A stretch of DNA of 63,104 bases, filler included, from Globobulimina sp. (Eukaryota), in assembly GCA_003354225.1 (NCBI GenBank). It is 15 parts of 15 records of this genome, joined end to end, with 100 filler letters (N's around TTAATTAATTAA, not from the genome) between each part and the next. Parts side by side here need not be neighbours in the genome. Positions count along the whole stretch, not along the records: positions 54,789 to 58,896 come from PIVH01001600.1; positions 58,997 to 63,104 come from PIVH01001601.1; 13 more parts are not named here. The stretch is one strand, 5' to 3'. Positions 916 to 63,104 of this stretch are shown one piece after another (the stretch's first letter is position 1; each line of letters opens with the position of its first letter). A model generated the notes under the pieces. That model had not been told where the DNA came from. It ran no database searches and worked only from the letters and a program-made list of their open reading frames with translations. Position numbers and translations under genes: made by a program.

Positions 916-3900
916 CTAAAAACATTTGAAAGTACCGACTTTATCGATTTTCTCTCTTTGTAGGTTTGTATGGAACGGGGTTTTTTGCATTCGGAGAGGA
1001 TCAAATCCGACTAAAACAATGAAAGAAATACATGTATAGGAATAGGGATTTTTTTATAGACATAATCATAAAACAGAGAAAGAGAAATATAAATAACAAC
1101 ATACTGTTTGGGATCGGAATGGCATCCAACTGCAGTTTGAGCCGTTTATTTGGCGGTTGTTTATAATTAATGGAGCTATGCCTTTTGTTGCCCGACATGT
1201 GTTTTTGGTGCTTTTTGCGTGTTTGCGCCCGTGTCATGTGCGTTTTTTTTGCAATATTAGTATCATCACAATCTAATACAATAACATCCATATGTTTGGT
1301 CTGTTTGTGTTGTACATGTTTGTGTTGCAAACCTTTGCAATAATCAGATTCAATTTTGATTCTATACTTTTCCCTTTGAATCTGATTATTATTCATAGTA
1401 ATTTCACTCAAAACCTTTAAAACTTGTGAAGTTTCAGCAAATTCAAGTTTAAATACCTTATTATTGGCATTTGCGGCCTTCCCATAGTTAGCTAGCTGCT
1501 CAGTGCAGATATTGCTGTTTATCTCGTTGGCATTCACTGACTTTACCTTTACCGTCTCGCAGATATTTATATTTACATTGTTTATGGTCGAATCTGAATC
1601 ATTATTTATCGTCGCAATGGACAGCGTGGAATCCGTATCATTGTTGTTCATATTATTCATCTTTGCGTGATGCTGCGAATTGGAAATGCAATCCACCAAA
1701 TTCCTATGCACTCTCAATGGAGGCTGCACAGTCTTTTTCGCCGCAGTATTTGATGGACCTTTCAATGATTCAAACAATAATTTGTGCTTATTATTACTGT
1801 TCGAATTGGCATTGCCATTCTTACCCAGAACTGGCGCCAAATGAGAGTCCAAATCGTTTTTCAAAAACGTTTTATGAGCATCCAATCGCCGTTTTTCTTT
1901 CATTTGTCTCACTTTTAATTTCTGCGCATCTTCGGCTAACTCACTGCGTAATTCATGATTAAATGCGCGGAAACGAGGCGGAGGATGGTGAGGATGCGGC
2001 CGATTCATTCGATTGATAGCGGACGGATAGCCTCTATACGACCAATGGGGCACTGGTACCGGCGCATAATATCGCCGATTATTATAATAATTGATCTGCT
2101 GCTGTCTCTCCATCGCAATATTCATCAGCGGCTCCGTCGATTTATGCCGTTGATCCGCTGCTTTATTGGGCGACTGCGACAAGGAAATAAGCGTCGGATT
2201 ATCCCGATTATTCACAGCATAGCCACCGCCATGACCGGCGGCGTGGGGCTGCACCAATGGCACCGCCACGTGCTGCTGCTGCATTTGTTGCATTTTATTC
2301 ATTTTCAGCGCCCAGCGCTTGGACCGCTTGCCGAATATCTTGGTGTCTTCAATGCTTTTCAATGCCGCATGAAACAGCTTAAACTGCGGCGTCAAATGCT
2401 TGATTTCCTTCGCCTCCGCACTGGTCAATATATGTTGGAAGAATTTGATCAAATTCTCCTTGGCGCCACGCACCAATTTCAGGCCATAGCTTTTATTTTG
2501 TCCCCACGACTCTGGATTCCCTTCGTGGTACAATACCGCTGCTAACTGCCCCACGCTGCGACACTGTCGCCGATATTCCACCGCCTCCTCGCCAATATAC
2601 TCACCGCTCGTCACACTCACACTGTGCTTCACTTTGATCCGTCGTCTATGCCATCGCGACACCACACAAATCTTATTATTCACTCGCAATTTCTCCTTCT
2701 TTTCATCCGTCGCGTCGCGTTTACTCCGACTCCGCGTCTGCCGCCGCAACGGAGTCACTAACTTCGTGCTGGCCATCATAGCCACATCGCCATCGCCGTC
2801 GCTGTCATTGCCATTGTCCGTATCCACGACAGAGACGGCATCAATGTCATCTTCGCTGAAATGGAAAAAATAGCGCGGGTTCACCAACAACCCCTTCTCC
2901 TCTAACTGCAGCCGCTGCGGTTTGCCATGAAGCTCAAAATAGGGATCGTACTCATTCATACTCGACAACACTTCATCGAATTTCTTCAAATCGGAGGGGT
3001 GCATCACAGGGTACACCTCGTCCGCTGTATTCTCGTCATCCTCGTCCGCGGCGGCCGCGCCTTTACTTTTATTCCTATTCTTCTCGCCTTGTTTGCTGAA
3101 ATCCGTATTGTAGATCAGCAGCTTCCTCAATTGCTTGATCTGAAACGCACGGATTAAGTTCACCGAGTTCTTGTACTGTTTGGCGTTTTGCGTGAACACG
3201 GTCCCCGGCTCCACACCGGTTTGCGTCTTGCCATTGATGTTGGTCTGCGAGGGCCAATTGGTGCAATTAAAGGGGCGGTAAAAGGCCTGCGAATACCACG
3301 ACTGCCCCTTGGCGATGGATCGGATAGTTTTGAGGTACAGATTGCACTGCGAACGCGACGTATTGCCGCCGTATTTGATCTTGCTGTCGTCGTGCAAATA
3401 GACCCAACGTAGGTCCAAGGCGGAAGAGAGCGCGTTTTCGATGGCCAAGGCGTCCGTCCCCGACACGTTTTGCCCCTTTTGCAGCCAGACCAATTCGCCG
3501 CAATTGCCGCCCTTATCGCAGCGGATGAGCAGGATGATGTTGTTGGGCGTGGTGTGCCCTTCCAACACACGAAAGAAGTAATAATCGCGCTGGCTGAGCT
3601 CCGTGGTGTAACCCATCATCTGCTGCTCCGACGTGCAGTTCGTGAACCAATTGCCGTCGTTGATGAGTAATTGAATCCATTTCTGCTTTTGCGGGATCTG
3701 CAGCCATAGGGAGTAGAAACGTTTGGTGTCGCCGTGGTTGTGCAGCTCGTTGAGAGTGCAGAACTGCAGCAGTTTGTTCATTTTGTGCGTGAAGAGCTGG
3801 CGCTGCTTCTTCTTGATGGAATGTTGGTGGTCGTAAGGCTCGAGATTGTATTTCAGCCATTCGCGGAATTCGCGCCATTTCAAGGCTTTGGTGGCTTTGG

Positions 3901-4117
3901 TGCACTCGGTGTCGGAGACGTAGACTCTCTGCGAGGCCAAGTGCAAGATTTTGTGGGTGGTGGATTGCCGCTTTTTTTTGCACTTTTTCTTTTTTTTTCG
4001 CTTTTTCTTGCTCTTTTTCTTGCCGCCTGCGGTATGGGTGGAGTGTTGCTTTCGTGCAAGGATAGGAAATGAAAATGGAATAAAATACCATTTGGATCGA
4101 GTGCGGTGGCCGGGTCG
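916..4117 (-). CDS. Large 5'-partial protein with a putative GNAT-like core followed by Q/N/K-rich low-complexity regions
   Basis: The 981-aa ORF frame stays open to the contig edge. A GT-AG intron at 1011-1104 restores a terminal exon ending at TAG 916-918. Core motifs: ELVWLQKG..SGTDAL, VYLHDDSK, GQSWYSQAFY. Confidence 0.75.
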
Positions 4118-9122: not shown

Positions 9123-10878
9123 TCAATAATTCATATAGAAGGGATACGGGGAATGTTGACGTTGACTCTTTGGCAATCTCAGCCAATTAACAAATTGCTT
9201 ATATTCCACCATATCGCGTTGATGAAATTTAGTCTTCGAATCCATAAATACAAAATTTGAGAAATAATCAGGAGATATTTCATTAAGATGGAGATTAAAT
9301 TGATTGGATAACTGATTAAAAGCATTCATATCATATCTTGACAATAAATCAGCAAAATCATTAAACTCAGAAGGAATCCATTCGAAGAACATATAAATTT
9401 TATATTTTATTAACTGTAAACAAAGCTCATAAACAAAGATCATTACTGAGTAGCGACCGGACCATTTTCTGGTCATCGCATAGAAACAAATGGAATTATG
9501 AATTGTATAAATGAACAGATTTCCCAGTTAAGATATGTTTGTATGACTCAACTAAGGTAAGGACGCAATGAGCTTCCTTTTGATGTATTTTCCAGTTCAA
9601 ATGTTGATCAATAAATTTATATTTTGCATAAACAGAATCAACAACAAAACCTGCGCCTTTATTGCAAGCGTCTGTCGCCGCATAGATATTAATGGATGGC
9701 TTGCGAATTAAATTAAGTATTGGGACCGAACGGATATAAAAAGCATATTTGAGCCAGAATTTAAGATCATTGATGATCGAAAGTGGGAGAATTATCCAAT
9801 CTGTTTTCTTAATATGTCCATTACGGATATTTTGATGGATATAATATATCGAATTATAAACTAAGGCTTTCGTATTTGGGTTAAGCTGGCTCCAATGCAT
9901 TATTTTGCCAGTTAAGGACTCCAAAGCACGGCCTGAGACAACTCTGTATTGAATGACCCACGTTATAAATTTCTTTAATTGTAGGAAGGTTTTATGTGGA
10001 ATCTGAGCAGTTTGGTGACGGAGATTCCATTGTATTCCGTGAACGACTGACTCTTGGCATGCATGGACAGATTTGCCGTGGGAAACGGTCACATTTAACT
10101 CTTTAAAGAGGTCATCAAAGATCTGCTCCATTAAGAGACAGTCTTGCTTGGTTTTTGTGGCCATGGTAAAGTCATCAACGTGGACACGAATCGAATTTAA
10201 TAAATGAGGATATTGGATATGTAATTTGCAGTTATTTATAATCCAAACTAACAAAGTTGCAAAGTATTGACAGTTTGCAGGAGCTGATGATACTCCGTAT
10301 GGTTGTTTTCTGTCTCTGAACCGAAGACCGAATAAGGAGTATCCCAAGAAATCAGAATCGATTTCGGGTAATCCAATTTGCCTAAAAAAATCAGCTAAAT
10401 CGCGTAAGGCAAAATACTTTTTATCATGGAACAATTTGGCATAATCTTTCAAATTTGGAAGGTCAATCATGGCACATTTTTCTTGACGGATCCATTGATT
10501 AATGGCGGTGGTATTTATTGTATGGAAGGAACCATTGCGAATGACTCGGACTTTCGTATAAAAACCAAAATGGTCTTTTTTGGGGACGGCAAATATCATT
10601 ATAACATATTTCGGATCATAGTGAATGGGCTCAATTTGACCATTCTCACACTCGGAAATTATTTTGTCAACAATAGCAATCGCTTCTCTGTTATATATAT
10701 ATTTCGATAAATTAGATGGATTTTCTTGTTTATTGAAGGTTTTCAACCATAACGGAAAGCCATTTTTAATAAATTCTAATTCTACTTTGTCGTTCTTCTT
10801 GTTTTTTAAGTAACGTTCAAAGGCGTCAATATTTAACGCATTGCGATATTTCGAGCCCTCTTTGTGAAGCTGTTGCAA
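9123..10878 (-). pseudogene. Reverse transcriptase-RNase H of the DIRS-like element, frameshifted at about 9500
   Basis: RT motifs GFPL, VPKKD, DLADFFRQI, PYGVSSAP, HVDDF. RNase H motifs TDAC..GAG and HQKEA, then WIPSEFNDFADLLSR in the next frame (9123-9476). Confidence 0.9.
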
Positions 10879-51183: not shown

Positions 51184-54100
51184 ATGATGAACGATAATAA
51201 CACACAGCGTCTATATAACGACACCAACCCGGCAATTATTAGTAGTCATGACATTATTGGTCATATTTCGCATTATTAGAGTTATTTTGATCAATCTGTA
51301 TCTTTGTTATCTTTGAATATCAATGGCCTGTTTTCACGGACAGGAAATGGCGAATTTAACACAGAAAAATTGGATGTTTTAACTGATATCATTATGGAGT
51401 TGGAACCGACTTTTGTTATATTGCAGGAAGTTTGTATCCATTATAAGGTCGATATACATCCTCCAGATATTGATGGTTACTTTAATAAAATAAATGAGGT
51501 GCCAATGTATGATCAGATGTTAAAGACTGTTATTTATGTACAAAATGAGTTGCGTGAATATGTAGATATCGTTCGAATTGATACAGTGACACAAGAACGT
51601 ATCATCCGTGATTTTGTTGATCCAACTACCTTAATTAAGGCAAATGGGCACTATTCTACGTGGATTGTGATACATCCTGGACCCGATACAATATATAGAC
51701 AATCAATTTTGTTAAGCGCTTATTATCGCTCTCCGAATCGTGATCTGACAGTTCCTGATCTGAAACTATTTAAATATTTCATGGATTATATTATTCTGCA
51801 CTATAAACAGAAGCGATGGATTAATGAGGCTTTGCAGCAAACAAATAATAGAATTAATTTGATTATTATTGGTGGTGATTTTAATCTGCATAATGAATTA
51901 TATTCGCGTTTGGATTATGCGAGTTATAACAAACAAGATCGATCAGAGTTTGTATGGTTAGATAGCATCATTGACAAGAAACGTATATCCGTTGTTAATA
52001 CGAAACGAATTGCGACACATTATCGAGGCAATGTATTGGATCTTCATTTGATTTCTGATAAACTGCTGCAAAATCATGATAATTATGTGATAAAATATGA
52101 TGATTCTCAACGGATTCGTTTCTCTGACCATTATTTTTTGTTTACAATTATGCATTTGCCTTTTCATGAAGCTTCATTTAAATGCCATCAGAATCCATAT
52201 TATAATGTTGCAAATATGCATTATCGTTTTAGTTGCCCTAAAACGCTTTATTTGTATCAGATGTATACAGTGAAACAATTACGCGAATTACAACAACGCA
52301 TTGAGGTATTAACCGATTATAAACATGATGTTATTGACAATATTGCGCATGATTTTTATTGCATTATTCATCATAATGCGGCTCGATATATTGGCAAAGC
52401 ACATAACCATAAATATCAACATCGACAGGTTTGGTGTACCAATGCTATCATTGATATGAGTGCTAATTTGAGACAGATCAAACGAGAGTGGCTTTCTTGT
52501 AATGATAATACGCAACGCGCTGCCAAACATTTGCTGTATAAACGTTGCAAAAACCGATTGAAAGCTTCCTGTATTAAAGCAAAGAAGTTGTATTTACAGC
52601 GAAATATGGATTTAACTATTGATGGTACGCGAGATATATATAAATCTATGAGGTATCTGCGCAAAATTAGTTCAGTTGCGCGCCGAAAGAAATATGTTCA
52701 GTAGTCATACCAAAGCAAATTTGTTTGCTCGTAAATTCTGTTACCGTTATCTGAAGGAAGTACCCTATCAACCATTGGAACGTTTGCGTTTCAAACATAT
52801 TCCATTCTGTGATAATATCTATAAATGCACGCATGTAATGCAAACTATCTCTGATGATATCTTGGAAGCGAATACAGTGACTAATCCTCGTTTGTTTCCT
52901 AATGATTCTACTCATAAAAATGCAAATGTTACCATAATACAGCCGATCTCTCGTCATTTAATCAAATTATACTACGAATAATGAATAAGCGGTGTAATCA
53001 CGGTATTGGTCTGCATATACAGTTGTTACTGTATCTTAATCCGTACATTGTTGATTTTTTGTATATATATTTGAATCTGTTCTATCGCTCTGGATACTTA
53101 CCACGGATACATAAAATTACGTATATTACACCAATAGCGAAGCCACGGCGTGATCCGCATTATATTGATAACTATAGAGAGATCTCTCTGAATGGATGTA
53201 TTAAAAAGATGTATGAGATGTGCTTATTGTATAAAGGTATCGAATTTGTGATAAATTGTGACTCGATACACCCCAATAATACTACTAATATGAAGGGGAA
53301 ATCGACGCGGGACATAGTTGCATTATTAATAAACGACATTGATGTTGGTTGGAATAAACAGATCCCGACATATGCAATTTTCTCTGATATTTCGCAAGAT
53401 TTCCCGTCGCTTTGTTATGATATTTTGGTGCAACGTCTGCATCGTTATTATGGATTTCCTATGAAATATATACAAGCTATTTATGATTTGTTTGTCAATT
53501 GCTGGTGTGCTGTCATTGTAAATGGAGTGAGATCGCATTGGATGCTGCAATTAATTGGCTTAGCACAAGGGCGCCCATTGAGCCCTTTCCTTAATATGCT
53601 TTATTTAGATCCTTTGTATTATGTGATACCGTCATATTTGCCCATAAAATTGTATATTTATGTCGATGATTTGGTGCTGTGGACGGTTTTGAAAGCTATA
53701 TTTGTTTATGATATTCAATATGGTTTGCAATATGCCATCGATAATATTATTAGATGGCTTCAACTGAATGGTATGTCTTTATCTGCGAAAAAGACGAAAT
53801 ATATCATCTTTCGCACCAATAACATGGATAAAAATTATCATATTCCCGTCCCACAGTTACATATCAATAATGTGGTTAAAACAGAGCCTGAGAAATATGT
53901 CAAATATGTTGGATATTATTTGACGTATAATTTATCCGCACGTACTCATATTAATCATATTGTACAGAACATCTTTTTGGATTACAGAGCAATGAAAAAT
54001 ATTCGTTATCGATTTCGGCGATTTCGTGTTAAAAAATTGTACCATTATATACACTCTGTAATATTATCCAAAATCGAATATCCGGTATTGCTGTTTGGCT

Positions 54101-54688
54101 GTATTTCCAATCAGAATGATATTAAACCACTGAAGCAAATGTATTATCGTGTTATAAAATTGCTGTATGGTGCATTAAATACGACGCCTTTGGACATTTT
54201 GTCCATTTTGACGTCTTTATTGACATTAAATTGATCCGTTTGTGGGTGAGTTTGTTGTATATTCATGATCGTAATATATTGTATACTCTAATTACCACAC
54301 AATGGATGCCAGTATGGAATGATTATATGTTATCCACAGTGAATATGCGTACACAGAAACCGAAGTTACTGTATATGAAGACTTATGATCGGAAGAATCC
54401 TTTGTTCCGCATCTTTTTATTGGCAATGAAGTACAAAGTATTGCGTTTAATTCATTATAATTGGCGTTTTATGATTAATTCGCATGGCCGTAAAATCAAA
54501 TATATCCCATCTTTTGTACCTAAGTGTGAGTATTTTGTGTTTGTTGATGGTTTATACACAGAGGAAGATACAATTAACCATTCTGATGTTACTTTGTATA
54601 CTTTTACCGATGGATCAATAGTTAATACAAACTGTGCAGGCATTGGTCTCTTAATTGAAATACATCAGATCCATCATCATGTTTTGAG
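51184..54688 (+). mobile_element. Degenerate non-LTR retrotransposon ORF2: APE endonuclease - RT - RNase H
   Basis: APE motifs NING, LQE, YRSP, GDFN, LD, SDH. RT motifs PIAKP, NYREISL, DISQDF, GLAQG.PLSP, YVDD, KYVG. RNase H motif FTDGS..AGIG. One in-frame TAG near 51277 and three frame changes (~52690, 52981, 54232). Confidence 0.92.
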
Positions 54689-54974: not shown

Positions 54975-57900
54975 TCAATGACATACAATATCATATTGAG
55001 TTTCTATCAACAATAATGATTTTTTATTATTATTCCATTTAATTTTCTTGTTATAAATAGTCAACTCATCTAACCGTAATTTACCGAATAAAACTTGAAT
55101 TCTATAGCAATAATTCTCTGTATCCACACAAATTAACGACGATGAACCTGTTAACAATAAAGGAACACATTCATTTTTATTCTTAAATGGTATTAAAGGC
55201 GATATTTGTAACCGATAAAAACTATTTCTTTTATCATATTTTTGCTGATTTAATGCCAAAATCAAACTATAACCTATCAATTGGCGATCATAATGAGAAG
55301 TACAGCCAGGTCTTGACGAAGGCGTGTTTGGCGGAACAACATTTTCAACTCCGCTGGTTACACAAGACAATGGGTTTTGAGCCGGAACTGTTGACTTTAA
55401 CCAGCAATATGGCTCTGTATTACTGAAACTTTGACACCCGGGGTAAGTATGCGGTGGTTGGTATGTCCAAGCCATACATCCATTTGTTTCACCACATAAA
55501 GACTCACATAACATATAATCCGCTCTACTTAATATATGCGGTGAACCTGGCATATCAGAGCCAGGCAAATCAATTCCAATCATAGTCGTATTATACACAT
55601 CAGCATAATAATGCGATAATATTCTGTAATCCCATTGGTCTTTGTATAAATCCGCATATTTATTTAAAATAGTTTCGAAATATGTGAATGCGGAATTTGT
55701 GTCATTCAATAAATACACATACAAAGAGCCAGAATTCAATGTAAAATCATCCCATTTATCTAAGTCTGTAAACTTACCGGAGTTACTAGAGCCATATGCG
55801 CAGTGATAGGAGAAATTGGACATATTTACATTAAATATGACACCATATTCATTATATGGCAAATAATTCCATTCATGTTCTCTTTGTAAATGTGATACAA
55901 ACATATTTTTCAATGTTGCATCCATTTCAATATCAATATCCAGCACAAATTTCCATAACAAACCATATAAAGTATCCCCTTGCAATGTATTCCTTGAATA
56001 CAAACTATTTGCACAATAAAATGAGATAAAATTACCATTGTCAGCATTCCATAAAAGTTGAGTTAAATTAGCCTTTGCATGTCCAATCTCAGCATTCAAT
56101 ATATTTGTCATATTAATATCATTTAGCGACTGCGACATTTCTTTCATAGCATACAAAGCCACAACATAAATGATTGAATTATAACTGTTCAAATCTCCAA
56201 TAACGCCATGTTCGTCAAATGTATTTACCATTTTATAAGGCAATGAATAGCCATTCTTGATGGCATTATTCATACTGTAAAATATGGCTTTTTTTGCAAA
56301 TGGATACGATTGTTTCATAAAAGCATCGCCGTTTTCTGCCCACTTCCAATTCATATAAATATCATAAATAAAAACAGGATTATCATCGCCTCGCGGGTCT
56401 CCATTCGGTGTATCCATTTTATACAATTTGCCTGGATTCGCGCAACTGCCACCAAAATTTTCTGACACCATGCCTTGTTCACCGAATATTCCATTGGATG
56501 GTAGCATTTGCTGCATATATAATGTAGTTAATATATTTTGATCTAACTCTGTAAAAAAAAGTTGATACGGCAACTTTCTATAATATCCGACATGCGGTGG
56601 TTCAATTTGATCACAATCAAAAGCTTCTAATTGTCTCCAACGACCATCAGCGAGATACATTGATGTACGAACTAAATATGATGCTGAATTGACATAGAAA
56701 TCTTTCAAATATTCTGGATACGCATTGTTATACATTAAGTTATGCCAATTTTTTGTATTATTTATTATTTCCGCAATGTTCTTTATAGTAAAACTATTTA
56801 CATCCTCTGAATCTTTGTATAAATTGCTGTAATACTGACCAATAAAACCGTTATCCCATGTTCTATATGGAAAGTAATATGAAAATGAATAAACTACACT
56901 AACGACCGAATTTGCTGCTACTTTAACGGCACCATTGCTTAATGCATATTGTGTTTTATTTGTAACTGCTTTCATATTTTGTTGTACATTTTGTGTAACA
57001 TTGCCATTTAAGAAAGAGTCCCACATTAAACGCAATGTATCATATTGGAAAGCTTTACCATTTAATTGCAGGCAATTGGCACTGGACAAACATTGATAAG
57101 TTGCCATTGTAATATTGCCACTTGAAATTGCAACGCCTTGTTTGTTGATTGTAAATCCATTTGTATTGTACGCTGATAATGTGTCAAAATGCATATTTTG
57201 ATCAGGGAAATTAAACACTAAATCAACAGTTATATCTTGCGCGCCATCATTGATTAAATCCATCACAAACAGTACGCCGGGAGTGCTATATTAGTATAAC
57301 ACACAAATTGCAAATATAATTATATAAATATGTAACAAACATACGTTGACATATTCATATTATGTGGTTTAAATGTTCCAAATGCAGTCAAATTCACATT
57401 GAATCTGTATTGTTGATCCCAAATGGTGTGATATGCGGATAAACGGGCGGTTGGATACGCGCCTTGATATTGTAAATTTTGTACTGCATAGTCTTGCATA
57501 TGGGCTTCCTTTTCTTGATTGGTTTCAAGTTGAGTCCTTAATATTTTTGCCGACGATTTGTCACTGTTTATCATAACACCAAACATCATCTCATTGAGAT
57601 CCATTTTATGCCAATTATTATCGGGCCATGCACCTGGGCCATTATTGTAAATCAATGAATCGGTAAAGCGGCCATCCGCTCTCATTTCAAAGATACCGCC
57701 ACCCATTGAACCAAATGGTACGGATGATCTCAGGCCTGAAGGTGGTGTTGAATAGGAACCATTTGGCTCTTTTTTAAATAACCAGCCTAACTCACCAACT
57801 TGAATATTATTATTATTATTTGGATCGTCCATATACATGTAACCCTCTTGGTAATTGGATGCAAGATTTACTATTTCAAACGACGAGCTCGAATCCACTG

Positions 57901-58003
57901 AACCATGATTATAAAAAACAAGTGAATCAATGGCAAGTGGAGATTCGCACAATACAGCATCGACAAATATTGTGAAACAAATTAACAGTGATGCCTGGCA
58001 CAT
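54975..58003 (-). CDS. Secreted GH116 (GBA2-like) beta-glucosidase/glucosylceramidase with an inserted PAN/apple domain
   Basis: Signal peptide at ATG 58003; SVPFGSMGGG, YQGAYP, WRQLEAFDC (nucleophile region), NTFD (acid/base region); one intron at about 57290-57343. Confidence 0.85.
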
Positions 58004-58056
58004 TGCGATTAACAAAGTAAGATTTTGGATACTAAAAAAACAACACTTTCTGTATA

Positions 58057-58464
58057 ATGGCACAAGAAGCAAAACCGTCACAATTTGATGCAAAGGATGT
58101 TGTTGAAACCGCCATCGCAGAAGGCCCAGTTGTGATGGTATGTAAGCTACACACATTTACATTATATTCACTTTAAATATTATATTATTGATTAAAGATT
58201 GCAAAGTCATTTTGTGGATATTGTAATCGTGCTTATGGAATCTTAGGAAAATATTATGGAGATGTAATCCGAAAAGATATTGATAGTGAATATAACGATG
58301 ATGAGGGAGAAGCAATTCAGGATTATTGTAAAGCGATAACCGGCGGGAGATCTGTTCCGAGAGTATTTATTAACGCCGTATTCATTGGCGGTTGTGATGA
58401 TACTGCAAAATTAGACTCACAAAAGAAATTAAAAGGTTTGATTGAAGCTGCTATAAGCAAATAA
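58057..58464 (+). CDS. Dithiol glutaredoxin (CGYC), 2 exons; absent from the supplied ORF track
   Basis: Intron 58138-58197 gives VVM-IAKSFCGYC...IQDY...TGGRSVPRVFI...IGGCDD. Confidence 0.93.
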
Positions 58465-59371
58465 ATTGAAATTGGCAGAGATAGATCAATGTCGTATTGA
58501 TCCATCTAGATGTCTTAAAATAATTCATTAACGACATCCTTGTTATGTTCGTTTTCGGACTTTTTCCGATTAAATTTAGAACTTTATATTGTATGCTCAG
58601 CGTTTTTTGTTTGAGTGCACGGAGTAAGGATTACGCAGCGTTTTGATGACTCAACGATACATTTTTTTCAATTATCTGAGAAACTGTTTTTTTCTTGGAT
58701 TTATATTGGGTTTGTTATAACTTTGTCTTGGGTTTGCAAATCTAGCACAAAATTATAACAAATGTATAATTGAATTTTCGGTATACAAATGGAAGGGCTT
58801 ATCTTGGAAATATCATTCAGTGTTATCACCTCACACAACAAAATTCAAATATTCGCAATCTATAAATGCTGTTCTATCGTTGTCATATGACGGTGTNNNN
58901 NNNNNNNNNNNNNNNNNNNNNNNNNNNNNNNNNNNNNNNNTTAATTAATTAANNNNNNNNNNNNNNNNNNNNNNNNNNNNNNNNNNNNNNNNNNNNAGAA
59001 TCACAATCATTCCAACATCACAACTCACTCTTTGAATTACAAGCAGATTGTTATCTCTACCAACAGCAAACTGCATTGGACATTTCACAAATTTACGTTG
59101 CCATTGTCAACTGACTAGAAAGATGTAAAAAATGCATTTTTCCAACCAAACATCAAAAAACTGTAACTACACACACTTGCGAACATTAACAAAATCGAAG
59201 AAAATTCTAGAAAATTCTTATTTTGATTTATTTTATCATTGCACTCACGCAAATTCGCAAAACATTTATGTTTAATTTTTTAAAATTTTAATTTTTTATC
59301 CTTACACTCGCTTTACGCAATATTTTTTAATTTTTGTTTTGCAATAACATATAGTACATCAAACACGTGGA

Positions 59372-60448
59372 ATGAAACGAAGTAAACCCGTTTGTTGGCT
59401 CAATAGTAGTGCACAACGTTTCAACGTTATACCTTGGCCTAGTGCTTTTTACACTTATATAACAAAAGAAAGGGATGCATTCGCAGTTACATTTAATTTA
59501 ATTGCTCAATTACGTGCAAAAAAAACTCAACCAATTTCAGCTGATCAATGTAACAAAGCTGCACAATATTTTATTGATTATGTTAACTATCAAAAAACAA
59601 AAATAATAACGGATAATATTAAAATATCCGATGAGAAATGGGACATTGGTATTGAGCAAGATGCTGAAGCATGCGTCGGTTATTTTTTGAACATGATCGC
59701 GGATTTAAAAGATGACAGAGCCATACCAGATGCTTTAACTGTTACTGCTGAAAATATTACGATCATTGACACAATGCAAAAATTTATTAGAAATAATTTT
59801 GCGTTTGCAACAAGCGATTGGTTAAATTGTGAAAAAAAACAAACTGGGCATGTTTGTAATACAGTTGCACAATATATGTTAACTCTTGATTTACCTGTTG
59901 ACAATTCAAGCTGTTCATTACAACAATTAATTGAAATGTATATAAAATCAGAGCCAGTAGATTTATTAGAGTGTGAACATTGCAAAGAAAATCATTCAGA
60001 TATTAAACAAACAAAATTTGCACAACTATCAGAAAAATATTTGATGATTCATTTAAAACGCTTCATCTTTGATGAGTCCGTTTCAATGCAAGGCATGAAG
60101 AAAAACAATGCAGTTGATTGTACAAAACATGTTGTTTTAAACTGTAATGATATATATACTGCGTACAAAGTTATATCTGTAGTTAATCATTATGGAAACA
60201 CTGTTCAGTATGGTCATTATTCCACTGACATAGCAACACCTAATGGTTTTGTAAATTGTAATGATGACCGAATTAAAAAGGTTTCACATTTTAATCCCAA
60301 AGCATGTTATGTTATTTTATTAGAAAAATTAAATAATCAACAAGGTTCTGTAGCTATTTCAAATTACATTTCTAATTTAAAACATTGTGGTAACCAGACT
60401 TCATCAGTAAACAAAAACAAAACAAATACTAAACCCAAATCAACACAA

Positions 60449-60479
<31 letters not shown>

Positions 60480-63104
60480 AGAATTTTGATATGTTGTTCC
60501 ATAGAGCGCCTTCAAAACATCCCAAAACTCCTAACTCTCCAAAAACTCCCAACTCTCCAAAACCCTCCACTAAACCTAAAACAACACAAAAAACTGCAAA
60601 AAAAGCAACACACAAAAAAATCAAAAGAAAGCAAACATTTACCCCTCAGCAAATTACTAATTATCGAAAAATGGCTATACAAAATAATATTACTAAAGAT
60701 TATACTGAACCGGAATTAAATTGTAAAACATTAACTGAACTACTTAGTATATGTAATAAATGGGAGATTCGGGTTAAATCAAGTAAAAAAAAAAATGTGA
60801 TTCAACAGATTTACAATCATCGTCGCAACCAACCTTGGTTCAGGGCATATATTCAAAAATATTTCAATCCCAAACCACCACCAACTAAGAAACGTAGAGT
60901 TGCTTCATTTGTTTTTCCAAAATCAGGAAAAACACCCAAACCTACAAAACATCCAAAAACTCCTAAACCACAACTAACTACAAAACCTACAAAACCTCAC
61001 AAATCTCAAAAAAAATCAAAATACTCGAAAACTACAAAAAGCACTGAAGAATTGCAAAAAATTGATGTTAATTTACAAAAATTAGAGCTTAATACAGCTC
61101 CAAAAGCAACTTTCGAAATAATGGACAAAATTAATCTTTGTAAATTAGCAACTTCATTTCCTGCTGGTTGGACTAAAAAAATTATTAAACAATTGCAAAC
61201 TTTGCAAAAGCAAAAAGGTAAAATATCAATAAATGATTTTTGGGCTATACATACAAAAATGGGGAAGAGATCAAAAATAAAATCTGATAATATCAAATCA
61301 TGGCAAAAGAATAACGTACAAATTTTGTTTTATGGACAAGATTTTGTAGAAAATGTGTGGAAGAAAAAACAAATTCCAGTGAAATTTGCTGATAATGTTT
61401 GTGCATTTTGTTATAAAAAATTTCATTCCAAAAAAGCTGTAGCAGCACATCGCACAAAATGTAAGAAGTTTATCAGAAAAAAAAATGCACAGATTAAAAG
61501 AAAACAATATCATGTTGCAAATTATGACCCTGTTGACAGGCATGAAAAGTATGAAAAAAAAGAAAAAGAAAAAAACCTTAAAACAGACAAAGAAAAAAAT
61601 GAGGAAGAAAGACTCGCTTACTGGAAAACAGGCAATCCAGACAATAAATTACACGATCAACAGTTTACTAAAAAAGCAGCCCTCAAATTTCATGAAAAAC
61701 AAAAAAAATATCATTTAATACAATGTCAAGAATGTTTTGAGCGATGGTATAGAGCTTTAAATTTACAATTTATACAAGAAAAGAAACATCATTGCAGTGG
61801 ATGTGCAGAATATTGTCCACAAAATACAATACCATATTATTGCCAAAAATGTAAAACTGGATGATTTTATTGCAATAATTGTGTGAATGAAAAAAAAAAC
61901 AAAAAATGTGAAAACGCAAAATGCCAAAAAAAAAACAAAAAATATGGCTCAAAAATATTAAAAAAATATATTTGTTCGAAATGTGAGTTACAATTGAAAA
62001 AAATTAAATGTAAAAATCCAGAATTTTCAGTTACATTGTTTGGAAAAGCAAATAATATGCACCCAGGTACTTTCCCAAAATTCGTGCAAGAGATGACAAT
62101 GATAGAAAGATTATTAGTTTCTCCCATAATTCACAAAGCACCCATTTATAGAGTTAAAGGAGGATCTCACCGTTATGCTGGAAATATTATTAATTTCATA
62201 CAACATACTGAAGAAATTATTGAAGAACTTCCGCGATTACCGCAAGATTTAAACATATTAATTATTAGGAGCTCACAAAACAGTTTAAAAAAAAATAAAA
62301 ACTTTGAAATTAATCGCAAACGTGTACGCGAATTTTGTCATTGGGCAGTAAACCAAAACTTACCAGGATGGAATAAAATTCGAGTCTCTGAAGAAAATAT
62401 TAATAAATTACCAGTAAATGGTGTACCTGAAACTCTACCTACGGTTATAGATGATACAATAGATGAGATCGAAATAGCTGACGGACCTGGCTATAATGAT
62501 GCATATTTGGACAATGAAAAAAAAAATGAAAGAGAAGATTCTGATGAAACTGCGGAAAAACCATTCATTTCTTGCGGCATAACTGTTCCAGGCAAAGAGC
62601 AATTGCAGTCTAAAAAAATTGAACACATTTTAAATTGGCCAAGCACAGACAACAACGCAGTAAGCGAATTTTTAACTAGTAGTTTATGTAGCAAAGTATT
62701 CCCCACATTATTTCCTAATGGAACAGGAGATCCCACAAATTCAAACAGAATTCGCAGTGTAAAAGATTTTGCTGCTGCTGTTAAACATTTGCTTAAGTTT
62801 GCGTACCAACAAGAAGATGGAAAATGGTTTTACCCTTACGCAGCACATCCAACTTTTGCATTTTGGTGTTTAAATATGATACAAAGACATAGAGCCTTAA
62901 AAAGTGCAAATTTATATTTAACAAAACACCCTGAAGATCAAGAATTAACGGTGGAGGAAATTTTAGAGGAATTACAAACTACGAATAAAAAACCACAATT
63001 TTTAAAAAGAATTCAACGTTGGAGTGAGAACATCACAGGTTCCACAGGATATTGGCACGCACACACTAAAAAATTGCGAAATGGACTCGAACAATTGAAT
63101 TCTG
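59372..63104 (+). CDS. USP (peptidase C19) - K/P/T-rich linker - SAP-like - C2H2-like - ZZ-like finger - DUF6570 - Helitron Rep N-terminus; one frame with a single TGA at 61862-61864
   Basis: USP motifs CWLNSSAQ, EQDA, CEHC, IHLKRF, VVNHYG...GHY, NDD. The frame after the TGA is the same as before it. Confidence 0.85.
60451..60480 (+). repeat. (GAT)n microsatellite encoding poly-Asp
   Basis: TGATGATGAT... run directly after the USP domain linker. Confidence 0.9.

Follow-up and report, generated by a model that had tools for sequence, protein, structure and literature searches.

Two described systems are closest to the locus reported here. According to the accessible part of the HELIANO survey (PMC11417382), the peptidase family UCH is one of 20 domains that Helitron-like elements stably include. 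It occurs almost exclusively in the HLE2 group, where it is enriched in subgroups c and d, which come mostly from lungfish and axolotl. In the same part of the survey, only DUF6570, Herpes_Helicase, Herpes_teg_N and UvrD_C_2 are encoded together with RepHel in one open reading frame (ORF), and UCH is listed among 17 domains located in other ORFs. DUF6570, N-terminal to Rep, is proposed there as a marker of HLE2. The second system is formed by the VTD deubiquitinases. According to the accessible part of PMC9741609, the majority of VTD deubiquitinases outside viruses are found in ORFs of Helitrons (Helentrons), and 121 of these also carry an OTU domain. VTD domains of zebrafish Helitrons cleave ubiquitin and NEDD8 probes as well as K48- and K63-linked (and K11-linked) chains, and the suggestion made there is that they keep proteins required for transposition from being degraded by the proteasome. 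Here we describe a 63,104-nucleotide (nt) stretch of DNA from the Globobulimina sp. assembly GCA_003354225.1, called the window below, in which a ubiquitin-specific protease (USP, peptidase family C19) is encoded in one frame with DUF6570 and the start of Rep. Positions 58997–63104 are likely to be the 5' two-fifths or so of an autonomous HLE2 Helitron-like copy, with a USP that is stably included and acts as a deubiquitinase.

The window consists of 15 contigs of about 4.1 kilobases (kb) each, which are ordered by size and joined by linkers of the form N44-TTAATTAATTAA-N44 (for example 58897–58996). As the window is made of joined contigs, the side-by-side position of two pieces means nothing, and the genes upstream of the ORF are unlinked to it. 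The USP-Helitron ORF is located on the last piece, 58997–63104 (4108 nt). The plus-strand frame runs from the ATG at 59372 to 63103, is open since 59348, and is interrupted once, by the TGA at 61862–61864. It contains 1252 codons with this one TGA and neither TAA nor TAG. The GC content is mostly about 30–35% in the window and about 30% in the ORF region, and such an open frame with a single stop in AT-rich DNA cannot be chance. The end of the window is also the end of the contig, so the ORF stops there, inside Rep, by the sequence running out. For the searches only, the TGA was translated as Trp, resulting in a read-through protein of 1244 amino acids (aa; P0001). The predicted order along the ORF is a USP-fold cysteine protease, then Asp- and Pro/Lys-rich linkers with two modules and Cys/His motifs, then a CxxC zinc finger, DUF6570 and Rep; a PIF1 helicase would be expected past the contig end.

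The USP catalytic domain corresponds to aa 1–343 (59372–60400, plus strand), according to Pfam, matches in the PDB, an AlphaFold2 model and Foldseek. When these 343 aa were scanned by themselves, UCH (PF00443) was matched with 50.9 bits against a cut-off of 23.9 (expectation value, E, 2.1e-13), and the match covers aa 7–306 and positions 9–240 of the 254-position profile. UCH was not detected when the whole 1244-aa protein was scanned with Pfam, and DUF6570 was the only family reported. The phmmer search against PDB sequences found USP15, USP12, USP21 and USP46 with E values of 1.6e-4 to 2e-3, and the GHY and N/D-D boxes were aligned. The AlphaFold2 model of the domain, built from a 39-row alignment, has a mean predicted local distance difference test (pLDDT) score of 95.1 and a predicted template modelling (TM) score of 0.92. 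Every top Foldseek match of this model in the PDB is a USP catalytic domain, with E values of 6.7e-20 to 5e-17 and a probability of 1.00, in the order USP12 (5k16, E 6.7e-20), USP46, USP8, USP4, USP18, USP30, USP21 and USP2, with TM scores of 0.6–0.74 and identities of 13–20%. Judged by its sequence and by the model, the domain is a genuine USP-fold protease domain. The nearest clusters in the ESM Atlas are UCH families mainly from Nucleocytoviricota (score 0.95), a lead only, which may reflect composition. Neither OTU nor Herpes_teg_N (the VTD family) was found by Pfam at E≤1 in the whole protein or at E≤10 in three pieces of it.

The motifs of a USP active site are present in this domain. 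The Cys box VCWLNSSAQ is encoded at 59390–59416, where CWLNS corresponds to aa 8–12 (59393–59407) and the catalytic Cys is C8. The QDA box follows at 59654–59671, and the finger Cys residues are C153 and C201-x2-C204. The His box NH..GHY is located at 60185–60220 (GHY, aa 281–283; catalytic H282), and NDD at 60260–60268 (aa 297–299; N297 and D298), all on the plus strand. H282 and N297 are aligned with the GHY and DDD boxes of USP12 and USP15. The original prediction of a USP with its Cys, His and Asp motifs in one frame, and with the usual oxyanion Asn replaced, is borne out by these motifs, by the UCH match and by Arg3, which occupies the position five residues before the catalytic Cys (C-5). 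We take the Asn at C-5 of ordinary USPs to form the oxyanion hole.

In order to compare these positions, 30 rows of the alignment A1 were assigned to the close family and 8 to the ordinary USPs, and only the rows covering each column were counted. The catalytic Cys is kept in 22/22 family rows, the His in 23/23, and Asn or Asp at position 297 in 21/21; Asp298 is kept in 20 of 21. Arg at C-5 is found in all 21 covering family rows, and 5 of the 6 covering ordinary USP rows have Asn there. By this comparison, the Arg is a family trait and not a lesion, and the Cys-His-Asn/Asp triad appears intact. In some USPs the third residue of the triad can be Asn, and some papain-like or USP-like viral proteases have different residues at the oxyanion position. 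The constant Arg is also what would be expected if the USP fold were kept as a weak or dead ubiquitin-binding pseudo-deubiquitinase, which would direct the transposase to ubiquitinated chromatin or to PCNA. The catalytic Cys, His and Asn/Asp are, on the other hand, present in every covering family row at 25–58% identity, which is the pattern expected from an active enzyme, and we regard the pseudo-enzyme as improbable.

The USP by itself was searched against 1.84 billion representative proteins, and 540 matches were obtained at E≤1e-3, of which 43 reach E≤1e-10 and 18 reach E≤1e-30. The long relatives are the 11 proteins of at least 759 aa among the best 39 of the 540 matches (E≤4.3e-13), and all of them were scanned with Pfam. 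Helitron domains (DUF6570 and/or Helitron_like_N) were detected in nine of the 11, namely P0006, P0009, P0012, P0015, P0019, P0026, P0039, P0040 and P0042. Over the 11 proteins, DUF6570 is found in six, Helitron_like_N in six and PIF1 in three. The remaining two are P0029, which has UCH only, and P0004, a protein of 759 aa with no family, whose contig is 3.7 kb long. Six long matches of a weaker tier (E 5e-9 to 3e-6) were scanned as a control, and Helitron domains were detected in none of them: five are ordinary USPs (strong UCH, USP8_dimer, UIM), and the sixth, P0054, shows sub-threshold zinc-finger matches only. In word-indexed searches, P0002 and P0003, both matching the C-terminal third, were the only proteins returned for the whole protein, and the USP searched for longer proteins returned P0004 alone. 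A scan of Joint Genome Institute (JGI) metagenome contigs with a single protein gave 75 pattern matches and no confirmed relative.

The original prediction had suggested looking for other proteins in which UCH is joined to DUF6570 or Helitron_like_N, and had named a chimeric join between the two halves as one of the results that would overturn it. The search returned the nine fused relatives described above, which carry the USP in one ORF with DUF6570/Helitron_like_N/PIF1. The sources of the long relatives are contigs 3.7–20 kb in length in NCBI, ENA and Logan. The linker modules between the two halves (60638–60913 and 61049–61369) are also common to P0004, P0019 and P0042 collectively, and the tblastn alignment to P0015 continues straight across the TGA. 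The contig is short (4108 nt) and the assembly is fragmented, as would suit an assembly chimera or a one-off capture, in which a host USP fragment was joined by chance to a Helitron fragment. The summed contig depth of the two parts also differs (about 45–255 for 58997–60914 and about 18–55 for 60915–63104), but summed contig depth is not copy number. As independent proteins carry the same fusion, share the linker modules and align across the TGA, a chimeric join is excluded for practical purposes, and we consider this explanation hardly credible. According to these comparisons, the USP is a stable, inherited part of the transposase family.

The Helitron part of the ORF begins with DUF6570 at aa 889–1011 (62036–62404, plus strand), which was matched by Pfam with E 7.1e-20 in the whole protein and 1.7e-20 in the piece. 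The start of Rep (Helitron_like_N, 'FPTLFPNGTGDPTN...') is encoded at 62699–63103 on the plus strand and ends with the contig. The Helitron_like_N match covers positions 13–102 of the 191-position profile before the contig end, with E 0.008 and 16.8 bits against a cut-off of 28.9; it is partial and sub-threshold because the contig ends there. The predicted continuation of the frame into DUF6570 and Helitron_like_N is thus firm for the former and sub-threshold for the latter. BLASTP gives the C-terminal part an identity of 33%, over 389 aa, with the corresponding region of P0002, a complete RepHel. In the C-terminal 390 aa, the identity is 33% with P0002 and P0003, both of which carry DUF6570, Helitron_like_N and PIF1, and 36% with P0015 (UCH and DUF6570); the identities to these three proteins are 33–36% over about 300–390 aa. 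The description as a rolling-circle transposon with a captured deubiquitinase stands as far as a Helitron-like protein led by a USP is concerned; no search backs the part of it that speaks of capture from a host gene. No convincing terminal repeat of the element was found in the contig, which holds 375 nt of 5' flank and leaves the 3' end outside.

Between the USP and DUF6570, low-complexity linkers alternate with conserved modules, all on the plus strand. The first linker (60401–60637) contains poly-Asp at 60452–60478 and Pro/Lys-rich repeats with a 9-nt period at 60509–60582. It varies among other copies, seen in the sample contigs described below, by joints of repeat length. Conserved linker module 1 (60638–60913) is common to P0004 and P0019, and by tblastn it is 42% identical to P0004 and 47% identical to P0019, a protein with USP, Helitron_like_N and PIF1. 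A second Pro/Lys/Thr-rich repeat tract with a 9-nt period occupies 60914–61048. It is followed by conserved linker module 2 (61049–61369, 'FEIMDKINL...FPAGWTKK...'), which is common to P0004 and P0042. The motif C-x2-C-x12-H-x3-C at 61400–61462 has no family match, and sub-threshold C2H2-type Pfam matches are found in the linkers of P0042 and P0054. The CxxC...CxxC zinc-finger-like element at 61724–61984 also precedes DUF6570 in relatives, and a weak Gin zinc-ribbon match by Pfam (E 2.9e-4, under the cut-off) is located at it. This element is split by a Cys-rich insert of about 64 aa (61757–61948), which is absent from P0006, P0015, P0002 and P0003.

SAP-like, C2H2-like and ZZ-like modules had been predicted in this region. 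The motifs are found at 60716, 61400 and 61757–61948, but the labels find no support in the databases: no Pfam match to SAP, C2H2 or ZZ was obtained at E≤10 on the protein pieces. A phmmer search of the linker against PDB sequences gave low-complexity spastin matches only (E 0.065). The 'SAP-like' motif (60716–60820) lies inside conserved module 1, and it is therefore likely, from this conservation, to be a real small domain of its own, of an uncharacterised kind. Two pairs of direct repeats were observed at the Cys-rich insert. One pair is 61847–61868 and 62006–62027 ('AAATGTAAAA...', 159 nt apart, 77% identity), and the other is a 21-nt A-rich unit at 61890–61910 and 61926–61946 (36 nt apart, 95%). 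These short direct repeats, located in or beside the insert, hint that it may have arisen by local duplication of the zinc-finger region.

The in-frame TGA at 61862–61864 (codon 831) lies inside this insert and splits the frame into open stretches of 838 and 413 codons; no other ORF of the window has long open stretches on either side of a TGA. If the TGA were decoded, by programmed read-through or by a variant code, the element would produce a USP-linker protein and, more rarely, a USP-RepHel fusion in the manner of gag-pol. The long open frames on either side, the homology to P0015 across the TGA and the failure of any intron to remove it would suit such decoding. As regards introns, 20 in-frame GT..AG options exist that would excise the TGA. 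All of them end at or beyond 62021 and would remove the conserved second CxxC, and they were rejected; no in-frame GT..AG intron removing the insert by itself was found. A variant genetic code was also rejected: elsewhere in the window, long ORFs ended by TGA continue for at most 48 further codons to TAA or TAG, and TGA is an ordinary stop in the other contigs. Furthermore, the insert that holds the TGA is absent from all four aligned relatives, and P0019, P0039 and P0012 are full-length uninterrupted ORFs. It is simpler to assume that the copy is decaying and has acquired one nonsense change, and decoding of the TGA is very unlikely.

At the 5' end, the flank of the ORF is 375 nt long (58997–59371, plus strand), with a TAA at 59345–59347 and its last 12 nt in frame. 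Homology to relatives by tblastn starts at 59360–59366, before the Met. Positions 59360–59371 encode 'QTRG' in frame; in relatives the Cys box opens with a conserved 'RG', to which this peptide is homologous. These observations agree with the prediction, drawn from the Gly in front of the Met, that coding begins upstream. The leaders ending in the conserved 'RG' are 3–8 aa long in P0009 and P0042, and about 20–40 aa long and mostly basic in most other relatives. In the present copy, the TAA sits 8 codons upstream of the Met and removes the conserved N-terminal leader. Only one formal option exists for an upstream exon (ATG 59132, donor 59163, acceptor AG 59353–59354), and the peptide of this exon has no resemblance to the leaders of relatives. 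Three features, namely the contig end in Rep, the TGA within an insert specific to this copy and the stop 8 codons ahead of the Met, argue for an incomplete or decaying copy, which is probably not functional as it stands.

Other copies of the element were sought in sequencing runs X1–X3, which are from one sample of one study and possibly from the assembly's own source. This is the only sample in which the stretch was found, and no RNA run is listed with it. Run X1 gave 158 short contigs, which are distributed over all 30 bins. According to their likeness, 31 pieces are in the class of 99% and above, 42 in 95–99%, 55 in 90–95%, and 30 below 90%. Many of the X1 contigs differ by insertions and deletions in the Pro/Lys repeats, and one reaches 295 nt past the contig end. 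X2 and X3 gave 2 and 8 pieces, respectively. The pattern in X1 fits a family of diverged copies.

In the mechanism we propose, by analogy with the Helentron enzymes, the USP would be a deubiquitinase tethered to the transposase and would work in cis or nearby. Its substrate could be ubiquitin or a ubiquitin-like modifier, attached to the transposase or, where transposition takes place, to replication or chromatin factors of the host. The outcome would be protection from proteasomal degradation or from ubiquitin-dependent restriction, the role suggested for those VTD enzymes of Helentrons that have been assayed. Alternatively, the USP may be a cis-acting processing protease, which would cut the transposase precursor into USP/linker and RepHel parts instead of removing ubiquitin, in the way that papain-like and USP-like proteases of viruses process polyproteins. 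The protein is indeed very long and modular with disordered linkers, and one Gly-Gly is present (RVKGG, aa 927–931). According to the accessible part of PMC9741609, viral deubiquitinases often process polyproteins too. RVKGG, however, lies inside DUF6570, a domain also present in HLE2 proteins that have no Pfam-detectable protease, so a structural role is probable for it. Pfam revealed neither a ubiquitin-like domain nor an LRGG site, and the C-terminal USP of P0040 does not suit a fixed cleavage layout. We therefore consider a processing protease unlikely.

Several points weigh against a stable, deubiquitinating USP on an autonomous HLE2 copy. No catalytic motif of Rep (HUH, two Tyr) and no helicase is visible before the contig ends, and Helitron_like_N remains under the Pfam cut-off (E 0.008). 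The ORF is broken by the TGA, and the leader of the relatives is absent from this copy. The canonical oxyanion Asn is also absent, and the deubiquitinase activity is predicted from sequence. All the evidence from the sequencing runs is from one sample, possibly the assembly's own source. In the accessible part of the HELIANO survey, UCH is in an ORF separate from RepHel, and the published cases may differ in arrangement (PMC11417382). Finally, the closest Rep relatives, P0002 and P0003, have no Pfam-detectable UCH at E≤10, and their N-terminal domain resembles the USP weakly, with hhalign probabilities of 23–33%. When the family of P0002 and P0003 (8 proteins) was compared with the USP by hhalign, the probability was 33% (E 4.5e-4), and the His and Asp boxes were aligned and the Cys box was not. 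The AlphaFold2 model of this N-terminal domain, built from an 8-row alignment, has a pLDDT of 40.7.

The USP is not restricted to one type of transposase. It is N-terminal on DUF6570-positive proteins, namely that of the window and P0006, P0009, P0012, P0015 and P0026. P0019, P0039 and P0042 are also headed by this USP family, with E values of 9.5e-33 to 4.3e-13 to the USP of the window, and no DUF6570 was found in them even at E≤5. These three proteins have very strong Helitron_like_N matches (E 1e-46 to 5e-56), and two of them have PIF1. From their domain content they may be of the HLE1 type, although UCH is placed almost only in HLE2 in the literature. In P0040 (2672 aa), the USP is C-terminal (residues 2095–2420), after DUF6570, Helitron_like_N and PIF1. 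The presence of the USP on both DUF6570-positive and DUF6570-negative proteins and its C-terminal position in P0040 hint that the module may have moved between transposase lineages. In a wider interpretation, which we offer tentatively and hold to be somewhat less than an even chance, there would be a distinct and as yet uncharacterised USP subfamily that is restricted to rolling-circle transposases, as a module translated in the same ORF as RepHel, and that has moved between transposase lineages. The proposed subfamily would be marked by a basic leader, by Arg where the oxyanion Asn is usual, and by Trp following the catalytic Cys. If this is true, USP would be the third class of deubiquitinase recruited in frame by Helitrons, after OTU and VTD, and this would argue for tethered deubiquitination as a near-general requirement of rolling-circle transposition in eukaryotes.

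The locus and its relatives strengthen the idea that rolling-circle transposons must counter host ubiquitination. They also show that the transposase polypeptide itself can incorporate a third class of deubiquitinase, USP, whose catalytic residues persist across deep divergence. For biochemistry, the locus provides a USP that is compact and unusual at the oxyanion position. For annotation, the lesson is that UCH was seen only once the N-terminal piece was scanned apart from the full-length low-complexity protein. As UCH is invisible in the whole-protein scan, domain surveys may undercount such fusions. The whole-protein Pfam scan missed UCH in 8 of the 11 long relatives and flagged it only in P0015, P0029 and P0039. 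Thus, Pfam-based surveys probably undercount the USP-Helitron family.

The remaining pieces of the window encode ordinary eukaryotic proteins, such as condensin Cnd1, PPR, a kinase and GH116+PAN. No RepHel match was found in these pieces by tblastn with the relatives. The short contigs of the window are rich in repeats (non-long-terminal-repeat, or non-LTR, reverse transcriptase and endonuclease ORFs). The non-LTR retrotransposon ORFs are located at 9496–10878 on the minus strand and at 51304–52704 and 52981–54234 on the plus strand, with matches to RVT_1 and Exo_endo_phos or Exo_endo_phos_2. A glucosylceramidase-like protein of the GH116 type, which carries a PAN domain at its C-terminus, is encoded at 54975–57266 and 57320–58156, both on the minus strand. 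An upstream ORF in a different frame ends in '...STYVCYIFI', which fits a short GTATGT intron between both ORFs; this putative intron indicates that the organism has introns. A 981-aa ORF at 1001–3946 (minus strand) matches no Pfam family at E≤0.001. The region 2001–4000, which holds part of this ORF, has a GC content of 51%, well over the 30–35% found across most of the window.

The pairing of a C19 protease with Rep had been presented as undescribed, and this claim was too strong. UCH is already listed in HLE2, and according to the accessible part of PMC11417382 a USP on an HLE2 element is thus on record. What may be new here is the in-frame fusion of the USP with RepHel, the Arg variant, and the AT-rich microbial eukaryote as host. 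No mention of such a fusion, of the variant or of a microbial-type host was found in the accessible parts of the literature searched, and the HELIANO supplementary tables could hold cases. As far as the accessible part of that survey describes them, the HLE2 elements with UCH resemble the present locus in that a DUF6570-positive rolling-circle transposon carries UCH/USP upstream of RepHel, and in that the domain is stably included and not a sporadic capture. In the present locus, the USP is in the same frame as DUF6570 and Rep, whereas UCH is in a different ORF there; the host here is an AT-rich, intron-poor, microbial-type eukaryote, whereas the hosts of the UCH-rich subgroups c and d are mostly lungfish and axolotl (PMC11417382).

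With the Helentron VTD and OTU enzymes, according to the accessible part of PMC9741609, the locus shares a papain-fold deubiquitinase inside a Helitron ORF, catalytic residues conserved in autonomous copies, and a similar proposed protective role. The class of the deubiquitinase differs, being USP/C19 here and VTD/C76 or OTU there. Activity has been shown for VTD domains only (PMC9741609), whereas the present USP is known from sequence and model. In addition, no apurinic/apyrimidinic endonuclease is visible in the USP-Helitron contig, because it ends in Rep. Compared with the cellular USPs USP12/USP46, USP8, USP4/15, USP21 and USP30 (PDB 5k16, 5cvn, 2gfo, 2y6e, 3i3t and 5ohk; Foldseek E about 1e-19), the USP of the window is only 13–20% identical; it forms part of a transposase, and it differs at the oxyanion position, where Arg stands instead of Asn, and behind the catalytic Cys, where it has Trp. 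The predicted fingers-palm-thumb fold is common to both, and the Cys box, the QQDA box, the finger Cys pairs, LKRF, GHY and the N/D-D boxes of the cellular enzymes are also found in the USP of the window.

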